Shown: positions 18,077 to 35,472, counted from the stretch's first letter. The stretch: DNA of 64,000 bases from a virus (IMGVR_UViG_3300046524_000235), one strand, 5' to 3'. Made by a program: numbers and translations. The notes: generated from the letters alone by a model not told the origin.

Positions 18077-18373
18077 ATGGCTTCAAAAGACGGCGTTACA
18101 AATGGACTCAGTCCTTCTGAACCAATTACGTTTCCGGGCTTCGGCCCGAAACAGGTTGATGAAGGTGATTTTAATAACTACAGAGTTAGATACGCTCAAA
18201 TAGATATTATGGACCCAGGCTCAAGAGCAGAGCTTGAAATCATTGAAACAAAAGCAGTTAAGGGACAAGGGGTTATTATCCTGACGAAGGATAAATTCAC
18301 CTTCATGGATAAATACTATATGGTAGTAAGCTACCTGGAATTAGAGACACGAGATGCCGACACCAGCCGATAA
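18077..18373 (+). CDS. Hypothetical protein
   Basis: 98-aa ORF with AAGGA RBS between portal and RNAP. Confidence 0.6.
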   Translation: MASKDGVTNGLSPSEPITFPGFGPKQVDEGDFNNYRVRYAQIDIMDPGSRAELEIIETKAVKGQGVIILTKDKFTFMDKYYMVVSYLELETRDADTSR

Positions 18374-21300
18374 TCTACAACTTATCTTTTCATCACCTAA
18401 GGAAATGCGCACAAGAGTTGACGCTTCCTTAATGCAGGGCATCGCTTCTCAATTCCCTATCGAGGGTAAGAACTACATTCTTACTCTTGAGGATCTTCGT
18501 ACAGAGCCTAAGGAATTCACTCATCTTGACGAAAAGGATGCAATTCTTAAGTCAAAGTCTCTTGCATATCCAATCAAGGGCCACATTAAGCTTATTGACA
18601 AAACTACTGGAAAAGTTATTGACGAAAATAAGAACTTTTCGTTGATGGATGCATTCCACATTACTCCAAAGCACACAATGCTTTACAAGGGTAATAACTA
18701 CTCAGTTGCTAACCAGCTTCAGCTTAACCCCGGTGTTTACACTCGTAGTAAAGAAACTGGTGAACTAGAATCTCACTTCAACACTGGTTCTGGTCGAAGC
18801 TTCTCAATTACGCTTGATCCACAGACATTCCAGTTTTCAGTTCATCCTGCAAGCTCGTCTTCAAGCATTCCTCTTGGACCTCTGGTTTCAAGAGTTTTTG
18901 GCATTGGTCCAAAAGAAGTAAGCCAGTACGTACCTGCTCAGGTTTGGGAAGCTAACCTTGCTTCTTCAGCAGGTAAAGAGCAGAAGATCATCAACGATCT
19001 ATACGCCAAGCTTGTATCTACTGGTAAGCAAAAGCCTACTGCAAGTCTTGAAGAGAAGATTATGCAACTCCGTGAATCAATGGAGGCATCATCACTTTCT
19101 CCTCAGACAACTCTGGTTACGCTTGGTAAGTCACTTGGTGCTGTAAATTCAGAAACCATTCTCCGTGCAATGCGTAATCTTGTACAAGTTCACTCAGGTG
19201 ACCGTGAAGAAGACAATCGAGATTCTCTGCAATTTAAGCGTGTTCAGAATCTGCCTGATTTCATCCGTACTCGTTTCAGCAAGCACGAAATGCTTCCAAG
19301 CATTCGTCGTAAGCTGCTAGCTGGACTAGACAAGACTAAGAATCCGTCTGTACGTGACGTAGTGGTCAGCAAGCCCTTTAACAAGGTTATGACGGGCTAC
19401 ATCATCGACTCTAACCTCGTATCTACCCCTTCGGAAACTAACCCGCTGGAGAGCCTGGAAAGCGTTGGAAAGGTCACTGTACTAGGTGCCGGTGAAGGCG
19501 GTATTGCTTCAGACCGTGGAGTACCTATGTCAGCACGAGACATCGATCCGTCACACCTTGGCATTATCGATCCGAGTCGTACTCCTGAATCTGGTCACGC
19601 TGGTATTGACCAACGTTTCACTATTTCTGCTCGTCGTGATGATAGTGGTAATCTCTATTCACGAGTTCTTGATAAACAGGGCAAGCAACACTATTTGTCA
19701 GTCCAAGAAATGATGACAAGCACAATTGGTTTCCCACATCAAGAAGGGAAGAAGACTGTGCAAGCTCAGGTTCGTGGTGCACTTAAAGAAGTTCCAGTAA
19801 GCCAAGTTGATTACTGGCTGGCAGATACAACTGACATGTACACTATTACGACTAACCTCGTACCGTTCCTGAACAGTAATCACCCAGGTCGTCTAACGAT
19901 GGCCGGTAAAGCTATTCCTCAGGCACTGTCACTTGTAGAACGTGAAAAGCCACTTGTACAGACAGTAAATGGTCAAGGCGTAAGTTTTTCAAAAGCTATC
20001 GGCAACGTTATTAGCACTGTTTCTCCTGTTGCAGGAAGCATTTCGCACATCACTAAGTCACAGATTCATATTAAAGACGATGATGGTAGGACTCATAAAG
20101 TAGACCTCGTTAAGAATCTTCCATTCAACATGAAGGGTTTCCTTGATGATGAAAAACCTCTCGTTAAGGTCGGTGACAAAGTGAAGGAAGGCCAGCCTAT
20201 CTCTGATAACAACTATACGGTTGACGGAGAGTTGGCTCTTGGTAAGAACCTTGAAGTAGCGTACATGCCATATAAAGGCTACAACCACGAAGACGGCTTG
20301 GTTATTAGCCGTTCATGTGCCGATAGTCTTAGCAGCCATCACGCTTATAAGGTTGACTACTCTGTACAGCCAATCTCTACTATGAGCAAGACTCTGCTGG
20401 TAAGACACTTTTCTGGCAAGTTCACGAAAGAACAGCTTGAAAAATTGGATGAACGTGGTTTTGCTAAGGTTGGTGCAGTTCTTAATCATGGCGATCCGGT
20501 ATATGCTGTACTTGAAAAACGTGAACCTACTTCTGAAGACAGAATGTTGGCTCGGCTTCACAAGTCACTCGTTAATCCATTCCGTATTGCTTCAGAACTA
20601 TGGACCCACGAAGAGAACGGCACAGTAGTTGATGCACACACAGAAGGTAAGAATATTCGTCTTCTAGTGCGTTCAGTAAAACCTCTTGAAATTGGAGATA
20701 AGCTGACAGGCCTGCACGGTAATAAAGGTATCGTTTCAAAGATTCTTAATGACAATGAAATGCCTTATAAGAAAGAATCTGGTCAACCAGTTGATATTCT
20801 TTTGAACCCTGCTTCTGTTACTTCTCGTATTAACCTTGGACAGCTAATGGAAACTGCTGCTGGTAAACTTGCTAAAGTTACTGGCAAGACATACATGGTT
20901 CACAACTTCAGCAAGAACAGTAACGTTTCTGATCTAAAGAGAGAACTAGATGCAGCAGGCGTAAGTGATACTGACATGATGGTTGATCCGAAGACTGGTA
21001 AAGACCTTGGCAAGATTCTTACAGGCCCTCAGTACTTTCTGAAGTTGTACAAAACTACTGACCAAAACTGGTCTGCTCGGAATACGGGTGGCTACGATAA
21101 CGTACTGCAACCTACCAAGGGCGGTGAAGAAGGTTCTAAATCAGTTGGCTACATGGAAATGCTTGGTCTTCTTGGCTCTAATGCTCGTAAGAACCTTAAA
21201 GAAATTGCAACGCTTAAGTCTCAGGAAAACTCAGAATACTGGACGAAATTTAAGTTCGGTCAGGCTCTTCCAAAGCCACGTATGACCTTTGCTACCGAGA

Positions 21301-21755
21301 AGTTTCTCGATTATCTTAAAGGTGCAGGTATTAAGACAAGTATTGATAACGGAAAGCTTACAGCGTCACCGCTTACCGATCAAGATATTATCGGAATGTC
21401 AAATGGTGTAATTAAATCACCTGAACTTCTAAGTGCCAAGAACCTTGAGCCTGAAAAAGGTGGTCTTTATGACCCAGGTACAACTGGTGGATTGAAGGGT
21501 AAGAACTGGACTCACTACGAACTAGCTGAAGCTCTTCCAAACCCAGTGTTTGAACGTCCTATCAAGAGTCTGCTAGGTCTAAAGTCAAGCGAATATGATG
21601 GTATTATCCAAGGCTCAATAGGTATCAAGAAGTTGGATGATGGTTCATTTGCCCTGCACAATACGTCTAACGGTCAGCACATTAAAACTATAAAAGTGAA
21701 TAGTGCTAACATAAGTAGCGAAGCGGAAGGGCATAATGATCACGAATCCCAATAG
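18354..21755 (+). CDS. rpoB: Phage multisubunit RNA polymerase: beta subunit fused to beta' N-terminal segment
   Basis: Beta motifs DPSHLGIIDPSRTPES, GKNLEVAYMPYKGYNHEDG, GDKLTGLHGNKGIV, LNPASVTSRINLGQ, YFLKL, SVGYMEM; then beta'-like LEPEKGGLYDP and HYELAEALPNPVF. Confidence 0.92.
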   Translation: MPTPADNLQLIFSSPKEMRTRVDASLMQGIASQFPIEGKNYILTLEDLRTEPKEFTHLDEKDAILKSKSLAYPIKGHIKLIDKTTGKVIDENKNFSLMDAFHITPKHTMLYKGNNYSVANQLQLNPGVYTRSKETGELESHFNTGSGRSFSITLDPQTFQFSVHPASSSSSIPLGPLVSRVFGIGPKEVSQYVPAQVWEANLASSAGKEQKIINDLYAKLVSTGKQKPTASLEEKIMQLRESMEASSLSPQTTLVTLGKSLGAVNSETILRAMRNLVQVHSGDREEDNRDSLQFKRVQNLPDFIRTRFSKHEMLPSIRRKLLAGLDKTKNPSVRDVVVSKPFNKVMTGYIIDSNLVSTPSETNPLESLESVGKVTVLGAGEGGIASDRGVPMSARDIDPSHLGIIDPSRTPESGHAGIDQRFTISARRDDSGNLYSRVLDKQGKQHYLSVQEMMTSTIGFPHQEGKKTVQAQVRGALKEVPVSQVDYWLADTTDMYTITTNLVPFLNSNHPGRLTMAGKAIPQALSLVEREKPLVQTVNGQGVSFSKAIGNVISTVSPVAGSISHITKSQIHIKDDDGRTHKVDLVKNLPFNMKGFLDDEKPLVKVGDKVKEGQPISDNNYTVDGELALGKNLEVAYMPYKGYNHEDGLVISRSCADSLSSHHAYKVDYSVQPISTMSKTLLVRHFSGKFTKEQLEKLDERGFAKVGAVLNHGDPVYAVLEKREPTSEDRMLARLHKSLVNPFRIASELWTHEENGTVVDAHTEGKNIRLLVRSVKPLEIGDKLTGLHGNKGIVSKILNDNEMPYKKESGQPVDILLNPASVTSRINLGQLMETAAGKLAKVTGKTYMVHNFSKNSNVSDLKRELDAAGVSDTDMMVDPKTGKDLGKILTGPQYFLKLYKTTDQNWSARNTGGYDNVLQPTKGGEEGSKSVGYMEMLGLLGSNARKNLKEIATLKSQENSEYWTKFKFGQALPKPRMTFATEKFLDYLKGAGIKTSIDNGKLTASPLTDQDIIGMSNGVIKSPELLSAKNLEPEKGGLYDPGTTGGLKGKNWTHYELAEALPNPVFERPIKSLLGLKSSEYDGIIQGSIGIKKLDDGSFALHNTSNGQHIKTIKVNSANISSEAEGHNDHESQ

Positions 21756-22104
21756 GTTTATAAGGGGGCTATCTGATCTTACAGATATTGTGGATGATGA
21801 CTATGATATTGATCAGATAGTAACTACTCCTCCCACTACTCCGGTGGGAGTTGTAGCTCCTCCAACACAAGAAAGAGACAGTTCACCATCATCGTTTACC
21901 CTAGAACAAGCCGAGTTTACTCTGGCTTTTGATGGTGCACAAAACCTATCTTTACCAGATGTTCCTGCCTTAGGAACAATGTTGTTTATAAATGGATTTC
22001 TCCAATCCAGAACTTGTTATGAAGTAGTTAGTAACGTCCTTATACTACCAGAAGATTTAGATCTGTATGCCGGGGACCTTATTATGCTGACTTATATAAA
22101 ATAA
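21736..22104 (+). CDS. Fibre-associated protein
   Basis: C-terminal module (LFINGFLQ...Y...GDLIMLTY) shared with the C-terminus of 22178..23275. Confidence 0.55.
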   Translation: MITNPNRFIRGLSDLTDIVDDDYDIDQIVTTPPTTPVGVVAPPTQERDSSPSSFTLEQAEFTLAFDGAQNLSLPDVPALGTMLFINGFLQSRTCYEVVSNVLILPEDLDLYAGDLIMLTYIK

Positions 22105-22177
22105 GCAAAAGTTAAAATACAGTTTGTAAGCTAAGGTCCAGCTACTATCGGGCCTCTTTTAAAAAGGAGAGCCACAA

Positions 22178-23275
22178 ATGGCTCAAACATTAATCCGGGG
22201 CGGTTCACAGATAATGGCTGGATCTATTCCAGCTTCAGCGCTTGTATCCGGCCTCAATCTTCCAACATCTCAACTCCAAGACGGTGCCTCGTTTATTCGT
22301 TCGACAGGCACTGTTGCTATGGCCGCTTCTCTTAATATGGGCGGTTTTTCGATTACCAACGTAGGTATTCCAACGAACGGATCAGACGTAGCTAGCAAAT
22401 CATACGTTGACGCTTTAGCTAACGGTCTAAGCTTTAAGAACGCAGCTAGAGCACTTGCCGCTTCAAATATTACGTTAAGTGGAACTCAGACTATTGACGG
22501 AGTTTCTCTTGTAGCAGGTGACCGTGTTCTTGCAACTGCACAGACTACTGGTTCACAGAATGGTCTTTGGGTTGTAGCTGTAGGTGCATGGACTCGGCCT
22601 GCTGACTGGGCTGCAGCAAGTTCACAGAAAGAAGGCGCTTACGTTCTAGTTGAGCCAGAAGGCACAACATATAAGAACTCTAAGTGGTTCTGTACCACGG
22701 CAATAAACATTACAGTTGACACAACGTCAACAGCTTGGTCACAAGACACCTCAGGCACTTCATATAGCAATGGTCAAGGTCTTAGTTTAACTGGTGTTAC
22801 CTTCGCTATTAAGAACGGTAACGGTCTTGGCTTCGACGGCTCTAACAATGTTCAAGTTGTTGCTGCAAGCGGTGGACTATTAACAGTTGCTGCAGGCGGA
22901 GTAGGAATTACTGCTTCAAGTACTTCTGGTCAACTTATTGTATCCAACGGTTCCAATCAACCTGCTTGGGTTAGTGCTTCTGGTGATGTAACCATTTCTA
23001 CTGCTGGTGCAATGACAGTAAATAACGTTGCTGGTACTGGCTTCTTGAAATATGGTAACCAAGTAAACAATGAAACACCTACTGGTTCTATTAACGGCTC
23101 AAACACATCGTTTGCACTTGCAAATGCTCCACAAGTTAATTCGCTTGAACTGTTCTTAAACGGTATGCTACTTGAACCGGGTGCAGGAAACGATTATACT
23201 ATTAGCGGAACAGCTATCACTATGCTGTTCGCTCCGTTAACCGGAGACAAGCTAAGAGCATATTACTGGAAATGA
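22178..23275 (+). CDS. Virion fibre/whisker protein
   Basis: ASKSYVD motif, TIDGVSLVAGDRVL...QNGLWVV...WTR module and C-terminal NETPTG...LFLNG module typical of phage fibres. Confidence 0.75.
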   Translation: MAQTLIRGGSQIMAGSIPASALVSGLNLPTSQLQDGASFIRSTGTVAMAASLNMGGFSITNVGIPTNGSDVASKSYVDALANGLSFKNAARALAASNITLSGTQTIDGVSLVAGDRVLATAQTTGSQNGLWVVAVGAWTRPADWAAASSQKEGAYVLVEPEGTTYKNSKWFCTTAINITVDTTSTAWSQDTSGTSYSNGQGLSLTGVTFAIKNGNGLGFDGSNNVQVVAASGGLLTVAAGGVGITASSTSGQLIVSNGSNQPAWVSASGDVTISTAGAMTVNNVAGTGFLKYGNQVNNETPTGSINGSNTSFALANAPQVNSLELFLNGMLLEPGAGNDYTISGTAITMLFAPLTGDKLRAYYWK

Positions 23276-23511
23276 CGAATAACACTCGAATGGCACCAGA
23301 ACAAGACGCCTGGCTCGGAAAGATGCAAAACGAGCTGGGCGTTTTATATTCTAACGTATGGATGTTAGAAATTCAGAAGGAACGTCTTACACAAAGAGTT
23401 CTACAGGATGCAGAATTAATCAGCCATCTAAAAGAAAGAATTCTAAAATTAGAACAGTCTAATACAGAGCTGAAAGAAATGATTCAGCCAGAACGTAAAA
23501 CGAGAAAATAA
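23272..23511 (+). CDS. Small coiled-coil protein (possible fibre chaperone)
   Basis: 79 aa with heptad pattern; coupled to the fibre gene. Confidence 0.5.
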   Translation: MTNNTRMAPEQDAWLGKMQNELGVLYSNVWMLEIQKERLTQRVLQDAELISHLKERILKLEQSNTELKEMIQPERKTRK

Positions 23512-24045
23512 ATGGCACGTACACAGCTTAATCTTGGAGCACAAGGCGCAGATGGATCTATCTTAAGGACAGATCTAAATACTACTACAGCAGGAAGCGC
23601 ACTTATAACTAAGGTGATTGCTGGTACTGGCGTTACGTTTAGTTCAACGGGAGCTGATGCCGGAACAGGAGATGTCACTATCAATGTTTCTGGTGGGGGA
23701 GGGAGCATACCTTTCGACGTTATTATGTTTGTGCAGGGGAGTATGGCTAATGCAGAAACCTTAACTTCAATAAATATACGTCGTGCATTTTCTTTACCCT
23801 CAGGATTAACTGGAAGTAAAGTTGATTCAAAAGTTGCAGCAACTGCTTCCACAACTATAACCTTTACTAAGAATGGAACTTCAATAGGAACTGCCGTATT
23901 CGCAGCAAGCGGAATAGTAGCAACCCTTACTTTTGCTTCCGGCGTAAACTTTGCAATAGACGATATTTTCGAAATCGTAGGACCTGCAACTGCGGATGCT
24001 ACTCTTGCAAACATTCGTTTTAATCTAGTAGGAACTCTATTATAA
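23512..24045 (+). CDS. Fibre-associated structural protein
   Basis: N-terminus resembles that of 22178..23275; beta-rich C-terminal domain. Confidence 0.6.
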   Translation: MARTQLNLGAQGADGSILRTDLNTTTAGSALITKVIAGTGVTFSSTGADAGTGDVTINVSGGGGSIPFDVIMFVQGSMANAETLTSINIRRAFSLPSGLTGSKVDSKVAATASTTITFTKNGTSIGTAVFAASGIVATLTFASGVNFAIDDIFEIVGPATADATLANIRFNLVGTLL

Positions 24046-24674
24046 TGGGTACTTTAAGCGGTTCAGTTACAACAGCTACGGGAACTGAAGTATACAATCT
24101 TACGACTCCCAATCAGACAGACTGGATAGAATTTCCACAATCAGCCACTGCACCTAATCGCAAAAGCGGCGCTGGTTCAACGATAAGTCTACCTACTATC
24201 CTAGGTACAAACGCTTCATTTGCTGGCTTCAACTTCGGCTTAGGATATACTTGGACAGGCGGAACTCCTTTAGCATCTGGAACCACTAGACGGGAAGGTG
24301 CTTATGTAGCTCCTGCTAGCAACTCTATCCCTGGTCAGGGGTTTAGTATTTCATTTCCTGCAGATACTACTCCCAGAACAGCGGTTATATATTGGGGAGT
24401 TTCAAGTGGCGCTTCGAGATTGGTAGCTACTCTTTCTGACGGGAGTGCTCCAGTGCTTACTCAAAACCAAGCATTGACACAAAACACCGGATATTGGTTT
24501 TCTACCATTACATACAGTGCAAATTCTCCAAAGCAAACTCTTAAGCTTGATATAACTCTTACTCAAGCTGATTCTGGAGGCGGCGGAAACGTATGGATAG
24601 GCGCGGCAAAATACTTGAATGCAGCATATACCGGCCCTGCTAGAGCAAGAAGAACAGTAATGACGAACCGCTAA
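24045..24674 (+). CDS. Beta-rich structural / receptor-binding-like protein
   Basis: Thr/Gly/Ser-rich 209 aa; coupled to the previous gene. Confidence 0.55.
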   Translation: MGTLSGSVTTATGTEVYNLTTPNQTDWIEFPQSATAPNRKSGAGSTISLPTILGTNASFAGFNFGLGYTWTGGTPLASGTTRREGAYVAPASNSIPGQGFSISFPADTTPRTAVIYWGVSSGASRLVATLSDGSAPVLTQNQALTQNTGYWFSTITYSANSPKQTLKLDITLTQADSGGGGNVWIGAAKYLNAAYTGPARARRTVMTNR

Positions 24675-24692
24675 CATCTTAAAATTGGAATC

Positions 24693-25862
24693 ATGAGCAA
24701 ACCAAACGACCCAGTAGATCCAGATACCCTAGCGGTTTCAGGCGATGCATTCCATCAGATGCTATCAACCATCGATGTAGATGTGCAACTTAACGCACTC
24801 AAGGCTGAGATTAAGGAAACTAAATCTCCGTCTAAGAGAGATGCAATTATAAAGAAAATCAAGTACTTAGCCGGGCTAAAAAAAGTCGATTTGAGACCAG
24901 AGACGGCATATGTGCTTCACAATATTCCAGTCACTCCTCCTCTTGTTCGACCTAGTATTCCTATGGGTGGAAACCGTATTGAGTTTGCTGACGTAAATAC
25001 GCTTTATCGTGACCACATGACCATCAACAATTCGTTGAAGGACATTAAGGATGACCTGACTCACGATCAACTAGTAAATGAACGTAAAGATGCGTATAAC
25101 GGAGTCAAGGCTATTTTTGGTCTTGGCGATGCTGTTTCAGGAAGCGCTCGTGGTAAAGAGCTTAAAGGTTATATTCAACAAATTTCTGGAGACACTGGTC
25201 CGAAGGGCGGTTTCTTCCATAATAAGCTCCTAAAGAAGAAACAAGACTTCTCAGGTCGAGCAACGATTTATGCAGAGCCTAATCTTGGCTTTAATGAAGT
25301 AGCCGCACCAAAAGATATGCTGTGGACCATGTATGAGTTCCACATTATTCGTGACTTGGTTCGTAATGGTTATGATTGGATTGCTGCTAGAAAGGCTGTA
25401 GAGAAACGTGACGTTGCTGCAACTAATAGTTTCAATAAGATGATTAAGCAAGTTCCGGTAATTCTGAACCGTGCTCCTACTCTTATGAGAACAAACATTA
25501 CAGCTCACTTTCCTGTGCCAATTGAAGGTAAGACGCTTGGTATTAACCCACTTCACCTTCCGATGTATGCAGGTGACTTCGACGGCGACGCTTTAACTTT
25601 GCACGTACCAATGACTCCTGAAGCAGTTGAAGAAGCTAAACAAAAGCTTCTGCCACAACAACACATTTACGATTACCGTAAAGGTCAAGGCGCTTCAATG
25701 GTAGCTCCTGGTCACGAAGCAGTTATCGGTTCGATGGCAATTACGGAGCCAGATACAAGTCAAGAGCATCGTGAATTCGCAACGGAGGCAGAGGCTCTAG
25801 AAGCTCTGAAGCGTGGCGAGATAAACGAAAACACCCCGCTTAAAATCACAAGTCACGGTTAA
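24693..25862 (+). CDS. rpoC: Phage RNA polymerase beta' middle segment with catalytic site
   Basis: PVTPPLVRP, LLKKKQDFSGRATI, VILNRAPTL and YAGDFDGDALTLH (NADFDGD-type Mg-binding motif). Confidence 0.93.
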   Translation: MSKPNDPVDPDTLAVSGDAFHQMLSTIDVDVQLNALKAEIKETKSPSKRDAIIKKIKYLAGLKKVDLRPETAYVLHNIPVTPPLVRPSIPMGGNRIEFADVNTLYRDHMTINNSLKDIKDDLTHDQLVNERKDAYNGVKAIFGLGDAVSGSARGKELKGYIQQISGDTGPKGGFFHNKLLKKKQDFSGRATIYAEPNLGFNEVAAPKDMLWTMYEFHIIRDLVRNGYDWIAARKAVEKRDVAATNSFNKMIKQVPVILNRAPTLMRTNITAHFPVPIEGKTLGINPLHLPMYAGDFDGDALTLHVPMTPEAVEEAKQKLLPQQHIYDYRKGQGASMVAPGHEAVIGSMAITEPDTSQEHREFATEAEALEALKRGEINENTPLKITSHG

Positions 25863-26611: not shown

Positions 26612-26703
26612 GGTACTGGTCCTTACGAAGTAGAATTGTTTTTAGTAGGGAATGATATTCCTCTACATAACTCTTATACCAATTCGAAGGACCATTGTGG
26701 ATT

Positions 26704-28065
26704 TTAGAGATTTACACGGTCTAGTTCGCCGTCAGCGAAACCATTGTAAACTGGGAATCTGATTTGACCGCCTGGAACGCTAGGAGGATATGCCTTAACT
26801 TGGATAAGCTTCTCATTGAACAGATCAGGAGTCTTCCAAGCATTGATACGAGTATCTCTATCAAAGCCTGTTCCAACCTTACCAACCATTCTTCCTGAAG
26901 CATCCGCAAGAATCAACGCACCCATGCTGTCTTTGGGATTGCCTTTGATGTCGATTTCTTGTTGTTGACCAATTACCTTCAAGTTGTACGTTACGTAGTT
27001 CTTGACTTTGTATCGTACTGATTCTGTCTCTGGCTTAGCATAGTCTGCAACGATTAAGCCTTCTCCCTTTTGCTCTTTAATCCTGTCTAGATACTTGTTG
27101 ATGTTCTCAACGCCGTGTTCTAGATGAGGAGAGAACAGAAGATCTGGCTCACCATAAGCTTGTTCGAATTTCTGAATGTATTCGACTTTATCTTTATACG
27201 TTGGCAGGTCTGGATTCTTAACATCGATAAGCACTGCACGAACTGGACCTTTTTCCGCCTGAGTTGCAATTGAACGTGGAGGAAGAGAATTCAGAATACC
27301 GGAAACAGTAGGGTGAGACTCCGTTTCAGACTTTGCAAGACCTGTATGTACAAGCTCTACCGCAAATTGGTTTCCAGCAAATTCTGGCATCGGTTTAGCT
27401 AGGTGAGGAAGCTGTGCTGAACGCTCAGGAAATCCACCTTTTACGCTAGGTCTGCGGGAATGATAAGTTAGAGAACCATCAGGCTGTACGGTAAGTACGA
27501 AGTGAGCACCATCCCACTTCTTTGAAGCTACAGGATGCTCAAGCTGAGTCCAATCTCCCTCTACGTATTTGTGACGAACGTAGGTATCGATTGAAGCTTG
27601 TTTTTGAATATGTTCGAGATATGGATTAATGCCTTCCACGAATAACTGGCTCCCAAGAGGACCGATCCCGCGAAATGATTGAATCTCTGCCCTGATTTCT
27701 TCAGGAGTCCGCTTGTCGATCAGATTACTAATTGTACCATATTTCTCTTTCAAATGTCTTGCTTGGGCAAGCATCGTCGTGGCAGTAGATTCGTCAAAAC
27801 GACCGTAATGGCCTTGTACGAGATTATCACGAAGAGTTTCCCATCCAGCAGACTCCACGGCTTCAGGTGAGTGAAAACCCTGTGAAGCCATGTGTTTCGC
27901 AGCCATACCTGCTACTGAGCGCTGGATAGGTCTAGAAAAAAGAGTGACAGCCGTCATCCACTTGTACAGTTCTTTCTCGTCGCCTTTAGACAAGTCAAAG
28001 CCAAGACTCTCTGGGCTAGCAGGTTCTTTAAGGTCTGTCGCTACTTTTTCTAGGTATTTATTCAT
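26704..28065 (-). CDS. Helix-hairpin-helix (HhH-GPD-like) domain fused to ATP-dependent DNA ligase
   Basis: N-domain with FRGIGP HhH motif; ligase motifs I (SKKWDG), III (FAVEL), IIIa (AVLID), IV (EGLIV), V (YKVK) and OB-fold IRFPVY; starts MNKYLEKVA. Confidence 0.9.
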   Translation of the reverse strand: MNKYLEKVATDLKEPASPESLGFDLSKGDEKELYKWMTAVTLFSRPIQRSVAGMAAKHMASQGFHSPEAVESAGWETLRDNLVQGHYGRFDESTATTMLAQARHLKEKYGTISNLIDKRTPEEIRAEIQSFRGIGPLGSQLFVEGINPYLEHIQKQASIDTYVRHKYVEGDWTQLEHPVASKKWDGAHFVLTVQPDGSLTYHSRRPSVKGGFPERSAQLPHLAKPMPEFAGNQFAVELVHTGLAKSETESHPTVSGILNSLPPRSIATQAEKGPVRAVLIDVKNPDLPTYKDKVEYIQKFEQAYGEPDLLFSPHLEHGVENINKYLDRIKEQKGEGLIVADYAKPETESVRYKVKNYVTYNLKVIGQQQEIDIKGNPKDSMGALILADASGRMVGKVGTGFDRDTRINAWKTPDLFNEKLIQVKAYPPSVPGGQIRFPVYNGFADGELDRVNL

Positions 28066-28448
28066 GTTTTACGACTTGCGTTAAGGTGACGCCACATTGT
28101 GTTATCTACTTTAACTTCCTCAGATTTTTGTTTATTGCCACCATGAGCGAGAAACGGGGCTAGAGCTAAACCTAAAGCTCCGCCTACAGCAGCTGTTCCA
28201 GCTGTAACTTTAGCAGTTCTTGCGGGATTTTTAAACCATTGTTTTCCTGCTGCTGTAGCTGCCGTAACTGCTCCAGTTGCTGCAAACCCTGCCGGAATAA
28301 CAGCTAAGGCTTTAAGGTGATGATGATGGTCATTCTCTTTTGCAAACTGTTTCCTTACTTCTGGATCAGGCACATGGAAACGCCCATTATCATAGTGAAT
28401 ACCCTTAACGTATTCAAAAGCTATTTTTTCTAGATATTTGTTAGTCAT
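28062..28448 (-). CDS. Tagged small protein with Gly/Ala-rich hydrophobic helices
   Basis: Starts MTNKYLEKIA; two Ala/Gly-rich hydrophobic segments. Confidence 0.7.
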   Translation of the reverse strand: MTNKYLEKIAFEYVKGIHYDNGRFHVPDPEVRKQFAKENDHHHHLKALAVIPAGFAATGAVTAATAAGKQWFKNPARTAKVTAGTAAVGGALGLALAPFLAHGGNKQKSEEVKVDNTMWRHLNASRKT

Positions 28449-30372
28449 TTTTCATCAAACCTTTTACTTCATCAAACAACTCTTCCTTCGTATCTGAGTT
28501 TTCTGACAGATACTTGTCAATCGAGTACGGCGTCTTGCCCCATAGTGGCTTAGGGTGTACGCTGTGGAAATGCTCAACTAATACTTTACGTTCTTCTTCT
28601 GGCAAGTGTGCATGTGAACCAAATCTAACTGCACGGCCTACTACTTGGTTAATCTTACTTGGGTTAAAGTGTGGCTCAAGTACCTGTACACGCTTCGTTC
28701 CCTTTGAATCCAGTCCTTCTGAACCTGAAGATGAGATCAACAGAATTTTCTTCCTACCAGAGTTGTAGTCCTTGACTAACTGGTCCTTCTCTGCTCTTGA
28801 CAGTGAACCGTCATAGACAGCGTGGTCAATCTTCATTTCTTGAAGTTTTTTGGAGTAGTCTCTTAGTCCAGCATCAAGATAATTTGAATACACAAGGGCT
28901 TTGAAGTTCTTATCCTCCGACATACCCTTTTGGAGGCTCTCTACGGCTTTGAGAATCTTAGGTGAGTACTCAGCCTTACCGTCGCTTGTCAAATGCCTGT
29001 AGCCGTTAGAAACCTGCCTTACGCCTGTTGAGAAAGCATTGAGGTTAGCCTTTTCTTTCTTGTCCAGTGGTAGATTGTGACGGATCTTCATTCTCAGCAA
29101 GAACGGAATCTTACCTTCAGCGAACTTGTAATACTTCTGCTGCTCTTTGGACATCGGTACTTCAACGATAGTCTCTGTCTTCTTCGGGAAATGCTTTGCT
29201 GCTTCCGGATCATCTTTGCTATCGTAGAAGCTTACGTACTGATTGAGAATTTCTTTAAGCTCTTTTCTACGGTCAAGTCTACGCACTGCTTCAGGCTTGG
29301 CTCCTAGAAGTCTATCTTTGAAGCCCGGCTTAATAATTTCTTCCTTCGTGTAACGATCATCCATTTTCTTTGATTCTTCAGGAAGAACGTTATCATTGGC
29401 CGCAATGTTTACAAGAGCGGATATATCAGAGAGTTTATTGTAATTGCCAGTAGCAGTAGCAAGTAAACGACGATCAGCACCGCTGATAATATCTCGGAGT
29501 TCTCTAGTACGTTTAGTGTTCGTATTACGGAGCCTGTGAGCTTCGTCTGCAACTGCGATAGAGTAATCATTTTTACGTAATTTGTGAGCATCAATAACAG
29601 CTTTCTCATAGGACATTACATCCAGTCGATCTCTGTCCAGTTTGATATTGTGTTTCTTGAGTTCCTTATCAACGTTCGTGACGAGACTGGCAGGAGCAAT
29701 GACCAACGCCCGCTTCTTCGGGTACTTCTCTTGATAGCGACGTACTGCCTCAAGGAACGTCTTAGTCTTGCCGCTACCAAGGCTGTGATGAAGGACGACG
29801 CCGTGTTCTTTATCCAAATGATCAAGGGCATCAGTTTGGTGGGGACGTAGATCATCTTTCTGTTCCTTCTTCTTGGCAATTTTTTCTAGGTATACGTTAC
29901 CACCAGCATAGTCGTCAAGCGCCCAAGCTCGTTTCTCAATAGAAGATTTGCGAGTTAAATATGGGCTCGTACTCTTACCCATACCAGTAATGTTTCTGAG
30001 AATCCAAGATTTTTCGTTTTCTTTAGTCGGTGATTTCTTCAGCAAAAACTTCTCACCATCTTTGGTGAAGATTACAAGCATAGTCTCTGTACTATGTGGA
30101 GCTACAACAGCTTTACGAACCCAATCTAAATACGTAGTTCCAGCACCGTATTGGCCTTTAGGGATTACTACCTTCTTGCTCAATGCGTAAGCACGATCAT
30201 GTACAGGCTGTTCAAAGACGCCAATGATTTCGCCTGGCTTCGGCATATCTTTAAGCGTTGCAAAAGAATACGCCTTGTCCTTGTGGACAAGCCTGAGGTC
30301 ATAATGAAGGCCCATGACATCAGCTTCGTGTCGTTGCCGGGTAAATAGAAATTCGTCGTTTGGTTGTAACAT
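28441..30372 (-). CDS. LigD-type 3'-phosphoesterase domain fused to SNF2-family helicase
   Basis: RQRHEA...HYDLRL...PVHDRAY...IPKGQYGAG (PE domain); HSLGSGKT, ADEAH, ATAT, QVVGRAVR (SF2/SNF2). Confidence 0.88.
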   Translation of the reverse strand: MLQPNDEFLFTRQRHEADVMGLHYDLRLVHKDKAYSFATLKDMPKPGEIIGVFEQPVHDRAYALSKKVVIPKGQYGAGTTYLDWVRKAVVAPHSTETMLVIFTKDGEKFLLKKSPTKENEKSWILRNITGMGKSTSPYLTRKSSIEKRAWALDDYAGGNVYLEKIAKKKEQKDDLRPHQTDALDHLDKEHGVVLHHSLGSGKTKTFLEAVRRYQEKYPKKRALVIAPASLVTNVDKELKKHNIKLDRDRLDVMSYEKAVIDAHKLRKNDYSIAVADEAHRLRNTNTKRTRELRDIISGADRRLLATATGNYNKLSDISALVNIAANDNVLPEESKKMDDRYTKEEIIKPGFKDRLLGAKPEAVRRLDRRKELKEILNQYVSFYDSKDDPEAAKHFPKKTETIVEVPMSKEQQKYYKFAEGKIPFLLRMKIRHNLPLDKKEKANLNAFSTGVRQVSNGYRHLTSDGKAEYSPKILKAVESLQKGMSEDKNFKALVYSNYLDAGLRDYSKKLQEMKIDHAVYDGSLSRAEKDQLVKDYNSGRKKILLISSSGSEGLDSKGTKRVQVLEPHFNPSKINQVVGRAVRFGSHAHLPEEERKVLVEHFHSVHPKPLWGKTPYSIDKYLSENSDTKEELFDEVKGLMKND

Positions 30373-30397
30373 TCTTGTTAGACGCCCTTTGAAAGGC

Positions 30398-30434: not shown

Positions 30435-30444
30435 ATTTTAAAAC

Positions 30445-31572
30445 TTAAGCTGTAAGTCTCTGGTGAGTTTCAGCGATTCGAGCCTTGATAGTCTCTACTG
30501 ATGAGCTAAGAAGGAAGAACTCTAAATCTTGCTTAGCGTAAATCTCTTGTTCGAACGCTGGTTTGAATGTCTTGAACATTACGTCTTCAGGAGTCCAGCC
30601 AGTTACTTCTTGGATGATGCTGTCGTTGTACTTTTCATTGATCAGCTTATACTTAGAAGCGCCTTCTATCGCAACGTTGTAATCTTTGTATGTAGCACGG
30701 TTCCAACCCTCCCAATTTTTAAGCATGTGCTTTCTGGCAGTTTCTGGAAGTACTTTAGGATTGTGGAGTGTATTCCAGTCAGAAACCTGAAGATATGCAA
30801 CTGCTTGTCTAAAAAGATCACAACCGAAGTAATCGCCTGGGCCTACGTACCGTTTATTTTCATCGAGAAAGAAATTGTTGAAGCTAATGTACTTGCCAGT
30901 CAGAAGCCAGCTTGTAATTTCTCCAGCATCTCGATATCGTGAATATAGCATATCCGAAAATGCTCTTCCACTCATCCCGAGTGCCTTAAAAACAAGATCA
31001 GCACTATGCGCTACATTGAAGCTTACCGGACCTCGTCCTGGGATGTTTTCTTCATATTCCAGATACAGAGACTCGCTTCCAATCTTGAACCCAGAACTCT
31101 TTAGTACAATATTGATTAAATCGTAAAGACCATCGTAACCGAAAAGAATGCTCTGAAGATTAATATCTACGCTGATGTGTCCTCGTGCCGTATCCTTCGC
31201 ATCTCCGAAGTGATACAATTTGATTTCAATACCTTCATTCATAAATGAAGTGCATTTATCAGTACGTCGCACTTGTTCAGGAGTTGAACTCAGGCCGAGC
31301 CTTGTTATAATTGCGGTAATAACACGTTCGTTAGATGCCCGTCTATAACTGTAACCATCTAAAGTATAGGAAAGAGGCTGAGTTGAAACTTCTGATCTGG
31401 TGGGAACGTAAAACTCTTTTAGTTCACGCAAATTTATACCGATACCAATTTCTGAACCAGCGTCTCTTACTACTTGATTTACATGGCGACGTATGAGACT
31501 CCGCTGATCATTGGTTTTAGGGCGTGGGGTCCAGTAGTCAGCTGGAGTTGCAGTTTGTGAAATATTAACCAT
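30445..31572 (-). CDS. Hypothetical protein (C-half resembles phage nucleotidyltransferase-like families; catalytic residues not seen)
   Basis: 375-aa ORF; GFKIGSESLYL...VFKALGM pattern; no G-D-x-D found. Confidence 0.5.
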   Translation of the reverse strand: MVNISQTATPADYWTPRPKTNDQRSLIRRHVNQVVRDAGSEIGIGINLRELKEFYVPTRSEVSTQPLSYTLDGYSYRRASNERVITAIITRLGLSSTPEQVRRTDKCTSFMNEGIEIKLYHFGDAKDTARGHISVDINLQSILFGYDGLYDLINIVLKSSGFKIGSESLYLEYEENIPGRGPVSFNVAHSADLVFKALGMSGRAFSDMLYSRYRDAGEITSWLLTGKYISFNNFFLDENKRYVGPGDYFGCDLFRQAVAYLQVSDWNTLHNPKVLPETARKHMLKNWEGWNRATYKDYNVAIEGASKYKLINEKYNDSIIQEVTGWTPEDVMFKTFKPAFEQEIYAKQDLEFFLLSSSVETIKARIAETHQRLTA

Positions 31573-31989
31573 ATGACATTACTCATTAAAGACAATGAAT
31601 TCTTAAAAGACTGGGCAAAGCTAGCCGGTGTCTCAATCGAATTCAAAGATGCAACGATGCTTCCGGGAACAGCATGGATAGCTGGACTCCCAATCGACAT
31701 TGCTATTTATAAAGGCTACCTTGTTTTAAACGCTGTTGGTGAGTTCGGCGGAACAGCAAAGACACTTGCGAAGAGTAAAAATAAAGGTAGAGGTACTTTC
31801 AAAAACTTATACCAACACCTCCCAGATTTACTGAAAAAGTACGGGCTGGGGGATCGTATCTATCTGACCCCGCTCAGCCCCGTTTGGGAAAAGAACTACA
31901 AACTAGTTGAAGCTACAGAGCCGCTGAAAGGGCACTGGTATTTCTTGCAAGTTGAGCAACCGGATCAAAGCCAAGAGTGCCAGCCTTAG
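31573..31989 (+). CDS. Hypothetical protein, possible GNAT-like fold
   Basis: KNKGRGTFKNLYQHL resembles acetyl-CoA binding motif A; weak. Confidence 0.45.
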   Translation: MTLLIKDNEFLKDWAKLAGVSIEFKDATMLPGTAWIAGLPIDIAIYKGYLVLNAVGEFGGTAKTLAKSKNKGRGTFKNLYQHLPDLLKKYGLGDRIYLTPLSPVWEKNYKLVEATEPLKGHWYFLQVEQPDQSQECQP

Positions 31990-32275
31990 CCATACGCACT
32001 TTGTAGTCTTCGAGAAGACCTTGATCTGCAGGGTGCTTTCCCTTGACGGTAGAGAGGACCGGAGTGGTCTTCAGGTCACGGAGAAAGGTCTCGTGAACAA
32101 CCACGATTTCAGCCTTGCTTCCGTGGACATTTCCAGATTCCTGGTAGCAACTCGTACGACGACGCTCACGCTCAGCTTCGACGCTAAACTGTTGAGCAGA
32201 GTAAATGTAACCGTCGTCAACCCATCCCATTCCGGGAATGTACTCTTTCATGCAAACTCGGTAAACTGCAAACAT
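31913..32275 (-). CDS. Hypothetical protein (paralog of 32298..32570)
   Basis: Shared YRV.M.E...G.G...DGYIYS N-terminus. Confidence 0.65.
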   Translation of the reverse strand: MFAVYRVCMKEYIPGMGWVDDGYIYSAQQFSVEAERERRRTSCYQESGNVHGSKAEIVVVHETFLRDLKTTPVLSTVKGKHPADQGLLEDYKVRMAKAGTLGFDPVAQLARNTSALSAAL

Positions 32276-32297
32276 AGCTTGTCCCTATGTGGTTGAG

Positions 32298-32570
32298 TTA
32301 CTTGCGGGTGAGATCGCCAGCGTGCTTACCTACTGGCGTCCAATACGGGTCCTTGTCACCAAGCTCCAGAAAGTCGTGAAACTCCTGGGTGATTTCTACG
32401 ATAACGATGGGGCTTGACGGAAACGAGTACTCTTCGTAATCTTTGGCTGCGTCGATCTCTTTCAACCTGGCTTCGAGCTTTTCTTTCGAAATGCTATAAA
32501 TGTAGCCATCAGGCCGCTGACCCCAACCAACTTCTGACTCGGTCATTTCAACTCTATATGCTGCTAGCAT
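32298..32570 (-). CDS. Hypothetical protein (paralog of 31913..32275)
   Basis: Shared YRV.M.E...G.G...DGYIYS N-terminus. Confidence 0.65.
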   Translation of the reverse strand: MLAAYRVEMTESEVGWGQRPDGYIYSISKEKLEARLKEIDAAKDYEEYSFPSSPIVIVEITQEFHDFLELGDKDPYWTPVGKHAGDLTRK

Positions 32571-32791
32571 GATTCCCTCAGTTTTCTAAGATTATCCAAA
32601 TCTTCCGGATAGATCGCTGACCCGAACATCTCAACCTCATCCCAATACATACTGGTAAGGATTTTAGCGTCGGAAATTGCACTCTCTCCCTTGGCAGTTG
32701 CGTAATGTCTCCCTTTAGGACACACTACAAAAACAAGTTCAGGAGTTGCACTGATAAGTCTGCATCTGTTGTGCGTAATTTCTTCAGCCAT
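32564..32791 (-). CDS. Hypothetical protein
   Basis: 75-aa ORF, GGAG RBS, downstream of promoter motif 32946. Confidence 0.55.
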   Translation of the reverse strand: MAEEITHNRCRLISATPELVFVVCPKGRHYATAKGESAISDAKILTSMYWDEVEMFGSAIYPEDLDNLRKLRESC

Positions 32792-32999
32792 TTTTCAACT
32801 CCTCTGCATGAGCCTCTGCGGCTTCAAAAGAAACGAAAGGTTTAGGAAGACGCTTACCGAGTTTGTACACAAACCAGGTTCCAAACTCGTAATCAACTTT
32901 GTACATGCTCGACTCCCTAAAGTAAGAACTATGTTCTGTAATTTACTTATACCAAAAGGAATGGTAATATGTAAAGATTGTTCACCGTCTTAGACAGAT

Positions 33000-33623
33000 A
33001 TGAAAACTTGCTGTAAATGTAAACTTGACTTAGATCTAAATTTTTTCAATAAAAACAAATCGTACAAAGACGGACTCCATATAGAGTGCAAGGAGTGTAG
33101 ACGAAAGTACAGAGAGTCTAGAAAAAACGAAATCGCTGAATACAATGCTGAGTATAGACTTAGTATGCCGGAGACTCAGAGAGAAAAATATAGAGCTAGT
33201 CAAAGAAACTATTTGGAAAATTTACCTCCAGAAAAAATAGAATTTAGAAAAAAATATCTACAAAATTACTTTAGAAATCTTTCTGAAGTTCAAAAACAAG
33301 AACGGTCTAAATATAGCAAATCGTATTTAAAAAACAATCTGCATAAACACGCTGCAGTACAAGCTAAAAGAAGGGCCTTAAAAATTATGGCAACTCCAAT
33401 ATGGGCTAGCAAAGAAATAATTGATGATTATTATTTAAGGGCAACAGCTTGGTCAAAGCTATCCGGAGAAGAGTTCGAGGTAGACCATATAGTGCCTCTG
33501 AAATCAAATGTAGTATGCGGACTTCATTGTCAACAAAATTTGACAATTTTATCAAGATTCGAAAACTCTTCTAAGGGCAACCGTTGGTGGCCAGACATGC
33601 CGGAACCCGAACCGTTAAAATAG
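33000..33623 (+). mobile_element. Free-standing HNH homing endonuclease
   Basis: N-terminal CxxC...CxxC, basic helical linker, VDHIVPL...GLH...NL...EN HNH core; lower GC than flanks. Confidence 0.85.
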
Positions 33624-33645
33624 GGAATAATTTTACCTACTTACC

Positions 33646-35472
33646 ATGACAGAACGTTACACAACAGCCGGTGCACTGAAGCTAAAGTCCGAACTACCTA
33701 CTCAAGAAGCGCGGGATAACTATGACGTGTATCGCCCTCTTGACAAGAAAGCTATTTCAGATCTCGTCAATGTCCTTTTAAAGCATGGCGGTACAAATAG
33801 TCACGAGACTATAAATGATCTTGGTAAAAAGTTCTTCGATAAAGCTACGGCCATCGGTGCTACAACTCCGCTAACTGACTACATCAACGAAAGTGATGAG
33901 CGACAAGCTATTATCGATGAATTTGAAACAAAGGTTCATCAGATTTTTGCTAAGAAACTTCCAAAGACTAAAGAGAACGATGAGCTTGGCGCATTGACTG
34001 GCGAATACAACGGAAAAATTGAAAAGCAAAATTTGGACTATCTTCTTTCTAAAGGTTCTACGGCCGCAAAAATGGCACGTACAGGAGCCCGAGGAAATCC
34101 AACTCAATTGGCTACTGGTACCTCAACTCCTTTGATGTCTATAAATTTGCGCGGTGAACTTGTTCCTTATGTTATCAAGAGTTCATTCGCTAAAGGGATG
34201 TCTCCGTCTGAGATGCTTGCAATGAGCTATATGGGCCGTGGTTCTACCGTACTGTCCCAGCTTTCAACTGCTCTTCCTGGCGCTCTATTCAAAGAACTTT
34301 CTCCGACTACTTTTCATGAAGTAATCACGGTAGATGACTGCGGAACAACTAATGGTATTCTGCTTTCCATCACAGATAAGAAAGGTGCTATTGGCCGGTA
34401 TGAGGCTGGCACTAATACTCTGATTGACGAACACTACTACAAAGAACTTGTTAATTCTGGCAAGAAGGGTATTAAGGCTCGTAGCTCACTTACATGTGAA
34501 GCTCATCAAGGCATTTGCAAAAAGTGCTATGGCCTAATGGCTAACGGTAAGCTTCCAGAAATTGGTGAAAACGTAGGTGTAATCGCTGCACAATCAGTTT
34601 CAGAAGTTCTTACGCAGTCGATGCTTTCAACCAAACACAAGGCGTCTGTTGGCGCTCGTAAAGGTAACTCATACGAACAAGCTTCAAACTTGCTTCGTAA
34701 CCCTGCCGAGAACTTCAAAGACGAAGCAACGATCACGAATATCAATGGCGTAGTTTCAGCAATTAAACAAACGCCTCTTGGTGACCATCAAGTATTCGTT
34801 AATGAACAGATGCACTTCGTACCCAGAGTACAGGGCCTGAAAGTAGCTGTAGGCGATAACGTCCTGAAGGGTGATGCTCTTTCAACTGGCGTTGTTAATC
34901 CTCGTAAACTGGTAGGCCTAAAGGGTCTAGGAGCCGGTCGTATTCACATGGCTCACGAACTACGTGGTATCTACGGTTCAGACCTTGATCCACGTCACTT
35001 CGAGTTGATTGCAAAGAATCTTATCAAGCACGTAGAAGTGCAAGATCCAGGTGAGACAGGCTTTCTCCCAGGCCAGAAGATTGACGTAAACACAGTTCAG
35101 AAGTACCTTACGAACACCGCTGGTGAAGTATCTCTTGACAAGGCTGAAGGAAAGCTTCTTGCAAGAGGCGTTCATGAACTTACTGCTGGTACATTGCTAG
35201 ATGGCAATCATATCAACGATCTCAAGAGCCACGGCGTTAAAACTGTTCACGTAGCCAATACTGGTCTGACAGTTACTCCGATTGTACCTGGTCTTAAGAC
35301 AGCTAAGCTTCTTGATGACAACTGGGTTTCAAAACTCTCATTCTCAGGTCTTAAGAATACGCTTCGTGAAAGCGCTGCAGTTGGTGCAGAATCAGATGTA
35401 CACAGCACAGAGCCTATCACTCCATACATTCTTGGTAGTGAATTTGGTGAAGGTCCAGGAGGCCAATACTAA
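33646..35472 (+). CDS. rpoC: Phage RNA polymerase beta' C-terminal segment
   Basis: TGARGNPTQL, DDCGT, RSSLTCEAHQGICKKCYG zinc site, GENVGVIAAQSVSEVLTQSMLSTKH trigger-loop region. Confidence 0.92.
   Translation: MTERYTTAGALKLKSELPTQEARDNYDVYRPLDKKAISDLVNVLLKHGGTNSHETINDLGKKFFDKATAIGATTPLTDYINESDERQAIIDEFETKVHQIFAKKLPKTKENDELGALTGEYNGKIEKQNLDYLLSKGSTAAKMARTGARGNPTQLATGTSTPLMSINLRGELVPYVIKSSFAKGMSPSEMLAMSYMGRGSTVLSQLSTALPGALFKELSPTTFHEVITVDDCGTTNGILLSITDKKGAIGRYEAGTNTLIDEHYYKELVNSGKKGIKARSSLTCEAHQGICKKCYGLMANGKLPEIGENVGVIAAQSVSEVLTQSMLSTKHKASVGARKGNSYEQASNLLRNPAENFKDEATITNINGVVSAIKQTPLGDHQVFVNEQMHFVPRVQGLKVAVGDNVLKGDALSTGVVNPRKLVGLKGLGAGRIHMAHELRGIYGSDLDPRHFELIAKNLIKHVEVQDPGETGFLPGQKIDVNTVQKYLTNTAGEVSLDKAEGKLLARGVHELTAGTLLDGNHINDLKSHGVKTVHVANTGLTVTPIVPGLKTAKLLDDNWVSKLSFSGLKNTLRESAAVGAESDVHSTEPITPYILGSEFGEGPGGQY

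Follow-up and report, generated by a model that had tools for sequence, protein, structure and literature searches.

The RNA polymerase (RNAP) of the virus IMGVR_UViG_3300046524_000235 is encoded by three separate genes in a layout that, judging from sequence comparison, is conserved and working. The complete beta subunit is joined in frame to the N-terminal part of beta' (gene 1), while the catalytic middle of beta' (gene 2) and its remainder (gene 3) are encoded separately. The DNA analyzed, referred to as the window, comprises 64,000 nucleotides and corresponds to bases 2542-66541 of a 181,435-bp IMG/VR virus record, which carries direct terminal repeats and is rated complete. All RNAP homology in the window lies in three open reading frames (ORFs) on the plus strand, so that an RNAP in three pieces cut at unusual points, as described in the initial annotation, was recovered with the same pieces, positions and strand. 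The gene architecture and its evolutionary reading are considered secure, and the interpretation given in the initial annotation is supported in part. The explanation as a whole, namely an alpha-less core of three chains, phage-encoded sigma factors, a derived cut at beta' residue ~165, packaging into the virion and reading of TTGGTATAAG, is regarded as probable.

Gene 1 (18354..21755, plus strand) encodes 1133 amino acids (aa) and matches the Pfam families Rpb2_3 and Rpb2_6 with an E value of 2e-63. Its residues ~70-1000 match bacterial beta chains in the Protein Data Bank (PDB) with E values down to 4e-74, and the motifs GLHGNKG and NHED are readable in the translation, i.e. the beta double-psi barrel and its flanking domains are present. 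Beta is contained in one unbroken segment of ~1000 residues. The portion downstream (21351..21752, plus strand; residues ~1000-1133) corresponds to about residues 15-160 of E. coli beta'. For these last ~130 residues the sole matches were the extreme N-termini of beta' chains, with an E value of ~0.8 for the single sequence. A family profile of the tail built from 11 members gave E values of 0.005-0.02 against the PDB, and the top 36 matches all covered beta' residues ~14-54. In addition, the uninterrupted segment of a related locus (L048; 541 aa) was modeled with AlphaFold2 (AF2) at a predicted local distance difference test score (pLDDT) of 80. In structural alignments (Z 22-23, ~480 residues), residues 30-541 of this model cover E. 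coli beta' 17-551 and Synechococcus gamma 5-558. Based on the profile matches and the model alignment, the C-terminus of beta joins beta' residue ~15 directly and with no linker. The fusion of beta to the beta' N-terminus proposed earlier is thereby borne out, as beta homology extends to ~1000 and is followed by beta' N-terminal matches only.

The alignment of the tail to beta' ends at GGL(F/Y)D, which is the start of the cellular zinc ribbon, and homology begins again at HYEL after ~13 residues. This site (21459..21518, plus strand) reads GGLYDPGTTGGLKGKNWTHYE, and the ~13 residues presumably replace roughly 45 residues of the zinc ribbon in the E. coli chain. No cysteine, and hence no N-terminal zinc ribbon, was found in this region in an alignment of the same 11 family sequences that formed the profile. 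The deletion of the zinc-binding domain noted at first inspection agrees with both observations, and the alignment indicates its loss across the whole family. Within the beta part, the positions of rifampicin cluster I (gene 1 residues ~350-385, window ~19400-19500, plus strand) are nearly all substituted in the alignment to beta chains of the PDB; in E. coli numbering we take the substitutions to be Q513S, F514T, D516S, H526S, R529K and S531T. Due to these substitutions, the phage RNAP is predicted to be insensitive to rifampicin.

Gene 2 (24693..25862, plus strand; 389 aa) spans beta' ~166-551, a part that includes the clamp helices and the catalytic loop (Pfam Rpb1_1/Rpb1_2). From residue 15 on, it matches E. 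coli beta' 180-515 and Synechococcus gamma 185-550 (PDB E 6e-48). The catalytic DFDGD (25575..25589, plus strand) comprises residues 295-299 and is invariant in the family. The catalytic loop (window 25566-25589, plus strand) reads YAGDFDGD, in which the usual Asn (E. coli N458, ribose-contacting) is an Ala. In one of the two deep clades of the family, clade II, the Asn of NADFDGD is replaced by Ala or Ser throughout, whereas clade I retains NADYDGD. Gene 3 (33646..35472, plus strand; 608 aa) covers beta' ~560 to the end including bridge helix, trigger loop and jaw. It is recognized by Pfam Rpb1_5 (E 8.5e-15) and matches beta' from ~570 to the end in the PDB (E 1e-41), with SI3 absent. The second zinc site is kept with four cysteines (DDCGT ... 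LTCEAHQGICKKCYG). Between genes 2 and 3 lies a gap of 7.8 kb, and at most ~10 beta' residues are unaccounted for between them. Both assignments made from the sequence at the outset, a separate 389-aa gene for the DFDGD segment and a third gene 7.8 kb further on for the trigger loop and jaw, were correct.

For the history of the two cuts, family counts refer to the best 80 of 397 related IMG/VR stretches from a profile scan, and the tree was obtained by a quick maximum-likelihood search. The cut at beta' ~551 was found in all of these 80 loci, and the beta'N piece ends at the same point with a conserved C-terminus of ...P(I/V)(E/K)I(G). At ~165, a cut was seen in 30 distinct sequences of the family, and 35 are without it. 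In the window, gene 1 stops at 21753-21755 and a new ATG follows at 24693, so that beta::beta'(15-551) does not form a single chain. In Salmonella phage Arash (gp206, 1525 aa) and in Vibrio phage D69 (D69_0261, 1527 aa), genes 1 and 2 form one ORF. The segments 18354-21731 and 24735-25847 of the window align with Arash gp206 residues 1-1142 and 1147-1524, respectively. Gene 3 is the orthologue of Arash gp216 (50% identity). Clade I (<=41% identity to gene 2), the outgroup clade on the tree, is wholly fused. Clade II consists of a fused subclade with good support, comprising Arash and the Vibrio phages, and of split sequences around its base, a part of the tree without resolution. Since any chain of the type beta::beta'(1-165) presupposes a fusion of beta and beta', the split at ~165 is derived. 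The cut at ~551 and the fusion are ancestral to a large phage family. The split may have had one origin, and the tree needs at most two changes.

The position of the younger cut coincides with a variable part of beta'. Members of clade II carry a ~55-residue insertion exactly at the ~165 site, which is missing from clade I, and the break falls into an acidic linker at the end of this insertion that is modeled as a loop, where the pLDDT drops to 62. Across bacteria the length of the beta' stretch at ~165 varies by almost 300 residues (E. coli versus Thermus coordinates), and it presumably houses the Thermus non-conserved domain. Because this length is so variable, the site is taken to be a permissive surface site. 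The distance between the gene 1 stop and the gene 2 start in the relatives forms a series of -20, -4 (ATGTGA), 0 (TAA-GTG), 1, 37, 69 and 119 nt, continued by 232-367, 653, 1354, 1750-2090 and 2937-3525 nt. The break began as overlapping or abutting stop and start codons, and the gap subsequently turned into a slot accumulating variable genes. An RNAP scattered over 17 kb, as first described, holds with regard to the three pieces; scattering is not the primary state, as the ancestral one consists of two genes, beta::beta'N and beta'C.

The three genes represent the only RNAP of the phage. The catalytic domain of beta' (PF00623) was found at a single locus of the genome, i.e. there is one RNAP set. 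In the complete 181-kb genome, no match to alpha (PF01000, PF01193) or omega (PF01192) reached E<=1, whereas the same profiles scored in all 14 of the 14 control genomes. The phage enzyme may make use of host alpha. Two sigma-70-like genes were identified outside the window. The first (C1:1102-1884; 260 aa, regions 2 and 4) stops 0.66 kb short of the window; its orthologues are gp196 in Arash and D69_0246 in Vibrio phage D69. The second (C1:89622-90335; 237 aa) comprises regions 2.x-3 (Sigma70_r3 E 2e-7, SigA chains E 2e-6) and is 43% identical to Arash Gp10. Sigma region 3 reads the TG of extended -10 promoters. The statement that no alpha or sigma gene is present is therefore right for the window and wrong for the phage with regard to sigma. 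Altogether, an alpha-less and sigma-dependent function of the phage RNAP is likely from its gene content.

A promoter-like motif, TGGTATAAG, occurs in 16 copies in the window compared to 0.4 expected, all on the minus strand. In the genome 39 copies were counted, none of them on the plus strand, and most read TTGGTATAAG. The sites are intergenic, often located just past a hairpin and T-run, and lie 30-50 nt 5' of the ribosome-binding site and start of minus-strand genes (helicases, ligase and others). Examples on the minus strand are 26673..26681 upstream of a ligase-like gene, the motif match at 31806..31814, and 32946..32954, with a Shine-Dalgarno sequence and an ATG ~40 nt further on. In form, the motif is an extended -10 element (TG-n-TATAA) with a G at the -7 position, and no shared -35 element was visible at the sites. 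In sigma-70 promoters, the -7 T is nearly invariant. The canonical TGnTATAAT is present in 3 copies per strand genome-wide. In clade II, including Arash, TGGTATAAG occurs in 2-6 copies per 21-kb locus and nearly always opposite the RNAP genes; from the loci of clade I and of the Vibrio phages it is essentially absent. Because it is kept across clade II and essentially absent from clade I, the motif follows the phage transcription machinery.

On the plus strand, TTAAAATA was found in 13 copies genome-wide compared to 1 on the minus strand. Its plus-strand copies in the window lie at 16131 (before the portal gene), 22112 (before the ORF at 22178), 33615, 39119, 49599 and 50912, several of them 25-50 nt before plus-strand starts (portal, cargo ORF, gene 3). 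The copy at 33615..33622, 31 nt before the ATG of gene 3, is a candidate late promoter for which the evidence is weak; a late promoter reminiscent of the T4 late TATAAATA is possible. A further candidate for a plus-strand promoter, TATCTCTATC, was dropped, as its copies lie inside genes and show no enrichment. Apart from these motifs, a near-palindromic 10-mer, AAACTGGACA/TGTCCAGTTT, is present genome-wide in ~12 and 10 copies on the two strands; a role as operator, terminator stem or methylation site is conceivable.

Combining gene content, motif and gene order, the following mode of action is proposed. The three chains would assemble into a bacterial-type catalytic core, the only RNAP of the 181-kb phage. 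Chain 1 would supply all of beta and beta' ~15-160 without the zinc ribbon; chain 2 would contribute beta' ~166-551, with the clamp helices docking sigma and the Mg-binding DFDGD; chain 3 would add the remainder from beta' ~560 on, which includes the bridge helix, trigger loop and jaw. The covalent tether between beta and beta' would substitute for the role of the alpha dimer in assembly, and the phage sigma-70-family proteins would recognize the promoters. Made late from the structural-gene strand, the RNAP would be packaged in the head with a Gp10-type sigma carrying region 3. Injected with the DNA, it would then start the early and replication genes of the opposite strand at the -35-less, extended -10-like TTGGTATAAG. 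By analogy and by genomic logic, virion delivery and use of the TGGTATAAG promoters by the phage enzyme are plausible.

The gene order fits this proposal. The portal gene (16165..18063, plus strand; PHROG portal, 45% identical to the Arash portal) lies directly 5' of gene 1, and the same neighbors, portal gene and then beta gene, recur in 77 related loci from both clades. The earlier remark that the pieces lie on the late strand among virion genes can thus be maintained, as they share the structural-gene strand and the portal gene adjoins beta in these 77 loci. In mass spectrometry of Arash virions, Gp206 was detected with 3516 spectra, the highest number, Gp216 with 1210, the SNF2 helicase Gp217 with 1148 and the sigma Gp10 with 467, while the sigma Gp196 was not on the virion list (PMC10585845). 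For the packaging suggested in the initial annotation, these published data on a relative are support by analogy.

Several observations weigh against the proposal. The list for the Arash virion preparation contains 116 proteins, including ribonucleotide reductases and ligases (PMC10585845), and a carry-over of abundant non-structural proteins is possible. All four cultured relatives (4/4, phage collection) have the fused two-gene form, and no cultured three-piece member was found. On the quick tree, two changes are enough for a split that was later reversed by re-fusion in the Arash clade. Neither phage sigma could be tied to a promoter class, and TGnTATAA resembles the extended -10 element of host sigma-70, so that host RNAP could read such promoters.

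The last point leads to the strongest alternative, in which the phage RNAP is not packaged. Here, host RNAP, perhaps redirected by a phage sigma, would read TGGTATAAG early in infection, and the phage RNAP would act later on the late genes of the plus strand in the manner of the non-virion RNAP (nvRNAP) of phiKZ. The combination of TG and TATAA in TGGTATAAG as in sigma-70 extended -10 elements, an Arash virion list that looks contaminated with enzymes, and a separate plus-strand motif, TTAAAATA, preceding the portal gene, a cargo ORF and gene 3 would all be compatible with it. However, the RNAP genes are located in the structural block beside the portal gene and in the same orientation. Since they share that block, their product would come too late for it unless carried over from the previous infection. 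There is also only one RNAP set, and Gp206 shows the top spectral count in the Arash virion preparation. Furthermore, TGGTATAAG has a G at the nearly invariant -7 T of sigma-70, and the canonical TGnTATAAT occurs only 3+3 times in the genome. The motif is common to soil-metagenome clade II phages and a Salmonella phage but not to clade I, i.e. it tracks the phage enzyme rather than a host. Altogether, this alternative is considered unlikely.

A second alternative concerns the break at ~165, which contains a cargo insert of 2.94 kb (21756..24692, plus strand). PHROG and Pfam scans yielded four ORFs on the plus strand: 21736-22104 with a weak DUF4183 match, 22178-23275, which is head-decoration/fiber-like, 23512-24045, which is like a tail-fiber C-terminus, and 24045-24674, which received no functional assignment. 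They were found only in the 5-6 closest relatives, lie on the same strand and have their own ribosome-binding sites. By these matches, the cargo ORFs look like virion-decoration or fiber proteins. Other loci carry different genes in the gap, for example an RRXRR/HNH endonuclease (L025), collagen-like and tail-fiber-like genes (L054, L035) or glycine-zipper proteins (L030, L031, L055).

If genes 1 and 2 were rejoined by an intron, a split intein or a frameshift, an Arash-like chain of 1525 aa would result. Elements of this kind exist in the family, as Vibrio phage D181 has a true group I intron and a homing endonuclease gene in the beta part, and inteins are present in distant relatives. Nevertheless, an Rfam scan of window 18000-36000 at E<=1 returned no intron, and the insert consists of four same-strand ORFs with their own ribosome-binding sites and a content that differs by lineage. 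In relatives the break comprises only ATGTGA, TAA-GTG or TAAaATG, and because these overlapping or abutting codons allow no room, an intron at this site is excluded there. The tails extending past the homology measure ~8 and 14 residues, which is below the size of a split-intein half. The reading of the 2.9-kb insert as an intron or intein was therefore rejected, and a rejoined chain is regarded as very improbable. With locus L005 as the reference for every piece, dN/dS amounted to 0.03 in gene 2, 0.04 in gene 3 and 0.06 in gene 1, whose beta' tail gave 0.10, which indicates strong purifying selection on all RNAP pieces. That the split is an assembly or sequencing artifact or a decaying pseudogene can be practically dismissed, since, although the record is a metagenome-assembled contig, the same break recurs in 30 distinct sequences of 53-95% identity from independent metagenomes and dN/dS stays within 0.03-0.10 throughout, the beta' tail of gene 1 included.

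Elsewhere in the family, mobile elements do interrupt the RNAP genes. In locus L047 and in the Vibrio phages D148 and D181, beta is interrupted at residues 508/509 by a group I intron accompanied by a homing endonuclease gene. The D181 intron (L004:7533-7813) matches RF00028 with 100.7 bits (E 1e-26), and the sister phage D69 is without it. Two fused beta::beta' chains, P0050 (2565 aa) and P0098 (2876 aa), contain a LAGLIDADG intein just past the DFDGD domain. In the window, a free-standing HNH/endonuclease-VII-like endonuclease (33000..33623, plus strand; phrog_1035, phrog_26577) ends 23 nt before gene 3. Its homologues occupy varied positions around the RNAP genes in seven loci (L003, L006, L022, L026, L027, L029, L030), and because of these shifting positions a homing type targeting the RNAP neighborhood is suggested. 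The RNAP genes of this family are targets of mobile elements. As far as the account in PMC7598289 goes, mobile elements had been proposed earlier as drivers of RNAP gene fragmentation in AR9, and the occurrence of introns, inteins and endonucleases observed here fits this idea.

Among the known systems, the RNAPs of Arash (Gp206 and Gp216, with the sigmas Gp10 and Gp196) and of the Vibrio phages D69, D148 and D181 are orthologous to the present one (48-54% identity). In these phages too, beta is fused to beta', the zinc ribbon is lost and beta' is cut at ~551; the portal gene is linked to the beta gene, both sigma types are present, and Arash also carries the TGGTATAAG motif. The difference lies in beta::beta'(15-551), which is one chain of 1525-1527 aa in Arash and the Vibrio phages and is broken at ~165 by the 2.9-kb cargo in the present phage, whereas D148 and D181 have the group I intron in the beta part instead. 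The Arash genes are annotated as 'beta' and 'beta'' in the original paper, in which the fusion is unmentioned (PMC10585845).

With the phiKZ/AR9 enzymes, the present RNAP has in common that a phage encodes a multisubunit enzyme with no alpha or omega and that beta' is cut after the catalytic double-psi barrel; one of the phiKZ/AR9 enzymes is virion-packaged, as is proposed for the present one. In contrast, beta of phiKZ/AR9 is in two or three pieces and never fused to beta', two paralogous sets exist (PMC7598289, PMC7824862), and a phage-specific fifth subunit is used in place of a sigma-70-family factor (PMC7598289, PMC7824862). None of these three features, i.e. a split beta, two sets and the lack of sigma-70, was found in the present phage. 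The phiKZ/AR9 enzymes are also far more divergent from cellular ones, whereas the present RNAP is highly similar to bacterial subunits. In approximate PHROG profile coordinates, the beta' cut of phiKZ lies roughly 35 residues upstream of the ~551 cut. The impression in the initial annotation that the splits differ from the phiKZ type is therefore correct for the overall layout, but the ~551 cut falls into the same inter-domain region at a different residue. By analogy, the present RNAP would work like the phiKZ/AR9 or N4 virion RNAP while standing outside the phiKZ type.

The mReC group (multisubunit-RNAP-encoding Caudovirales) resembles the present phage: its members are uncultured, have genomes of ~100-300 kb and encode RNAP subunits that align readily with bacterial ones (PMC7481178). 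Weinheimer & Aylward (2020) described separate beta (999-1563 aa) and beta' (902-1038 aa) subunits and did not discuss fusions (PMC7481178). Their survey was filtered for >=800 aa and the NADxDGD motif (PMC7481178), which drops the present clade because its pieces have 389 and 608 aa and its motif reads AGDFDGD. Accordingly, the family was probably missed by that survey.

The cyanobacterial and plastid gamma/RpoC1 and RpoC2 subunits show a similar division of beta' between the active-site half and the bridge-helix/trigger-loop half, in the same inter-domain region as the ~551 cut, and cyanobacterial subunits are among the best and longest matches in solved structures. Gamma is ~60 residues longer, since gene 2 ends at about residue 558 of the 617-624 in gamma, and the cyanobacterial enzyme lacks a beta fusion, retains the zinc ribbon and has alpha and omega. 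The C-terminus of beta and the N-terminus of beta' neighbor each other in the enzyme, and rpoB-rpoC fusions are known from Helicobacter, Wolbachia and tethered E. coli, where two complete subunits are joined and alpha is still used. Compared to these fusions, only a fragment of beta' (half of beta' in the relatives) is attached to beta in the present phage. No paper describing this architecture was found, subscription journals being outside the scope; the searches returned the literature on Arash, mReC and phiKZ/AR9, and the identical splits that had been envisaged at the outset as possibly already described were not among it. By sequence, the three-piece beta::beta' architecture appears to be a variant of phage multisubunit RNAP absent from the literature found.

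The surroundings of the RNAP genes contain further conserved genes. An ORF of 98 aa (18077..18373, plus strand), conserved in 32 loci, follows the portal gene and shares 20 nt with the beginning of gene 1. Its AF2 model has a beta-alpha-beta-beta fold with a pLDDT of 77 overall and ~90 in the core. No Pfam or PHROG match was obtained for it, and the best of 48,161 PDB chains reached a Z of 4.9, which is not significant; an omega-like subunit was considered and dropped, as there is no usable sequence or structure match. Gp205 is missing from the virion protein list of Arash. On the minus strand, an ATP-dependent DNA-ligase-like gene (26704..28065; phrog_114) lies between the RNAP pieces and is conserved in 21 loci. 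It is followed by a gene for an SNF2-type helicase with a LigD 3'-phosphoesterase N-domain according to Pfam (28441..30372, minus strand), which is the orthologue of the virion-detected Arash gp217 (42% identity). SNF2 helicase genes lie near the RNAP genes in 40 loci, and the protein may be a RapA-like partner of the RNAP.

To assess the wider family, gene 2 was used as query in a HMMER search of 1.8 billion representatives, which gave 1293 clusters at E<=1e-30. The top 150 clusters (E<=2e-53, better than any solved bacterial beta') consist of metagenomic proteins on contigs of 10-177 kb. By length and match position, all combinations of the pieces are seen among them: beta::beta'N chains of 1372-2214 aa ending at a conserved ...P(I/V)EI(G), beta::beta' as one complete chain of ~2000-2080 aa (e.g. 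P0056), beta' from ~166 to the end (P0037, 977 aa), apparently free beta'N and, in distant lineages, middle pieces of 383-393 aa. A scan of viral contigs with P0037 (beta' 166 to end) found no relative. In IMG/VR the family numbers 397 or more stretches, and its clusters at 50% identity exceed 150. Whether these sequences form a large, essentially undescribed family of RNAPs that are alpha-less, sigma-70-dependent and virion-delivered, use the tether in place of alpha, are freely re-cut and re-fused and offer an exchangeable cargo slot for fiber-like genes at ~165 is, in our judgment, evenly balanced.

In reviews, an own RNAP and an own sigma factor are treated as alternatives in large phages (PMC7598289, PMC7824862, PMC13282480). 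From its gene content, the present family unites a phage-encoded core with phage-encoded sigma-70-family factors and, if the wider reading above is true, would contradict the textbook divide between phages with RNAP but no sigma and phages with sigma but no RNAP. The series of gaps from an overlap to 3.5 kb, together with the Vibrio intron, is a clear example of how genes in pieces arise and then become insertion hot spots. With Salmonella phage Arash, a cultured relative is available, so that these questions can be tested at the bench. As a whole, the family represents a natural series of re-cut and re-fused bacterial-type RNAPs that shows which joints tolerate breaks and which elements are dispensable, namely alpha, omega, the beta' zinc ribbon and the Asn of NADFDGD, and thus bears on the assembly of multisubunit RNAPs.

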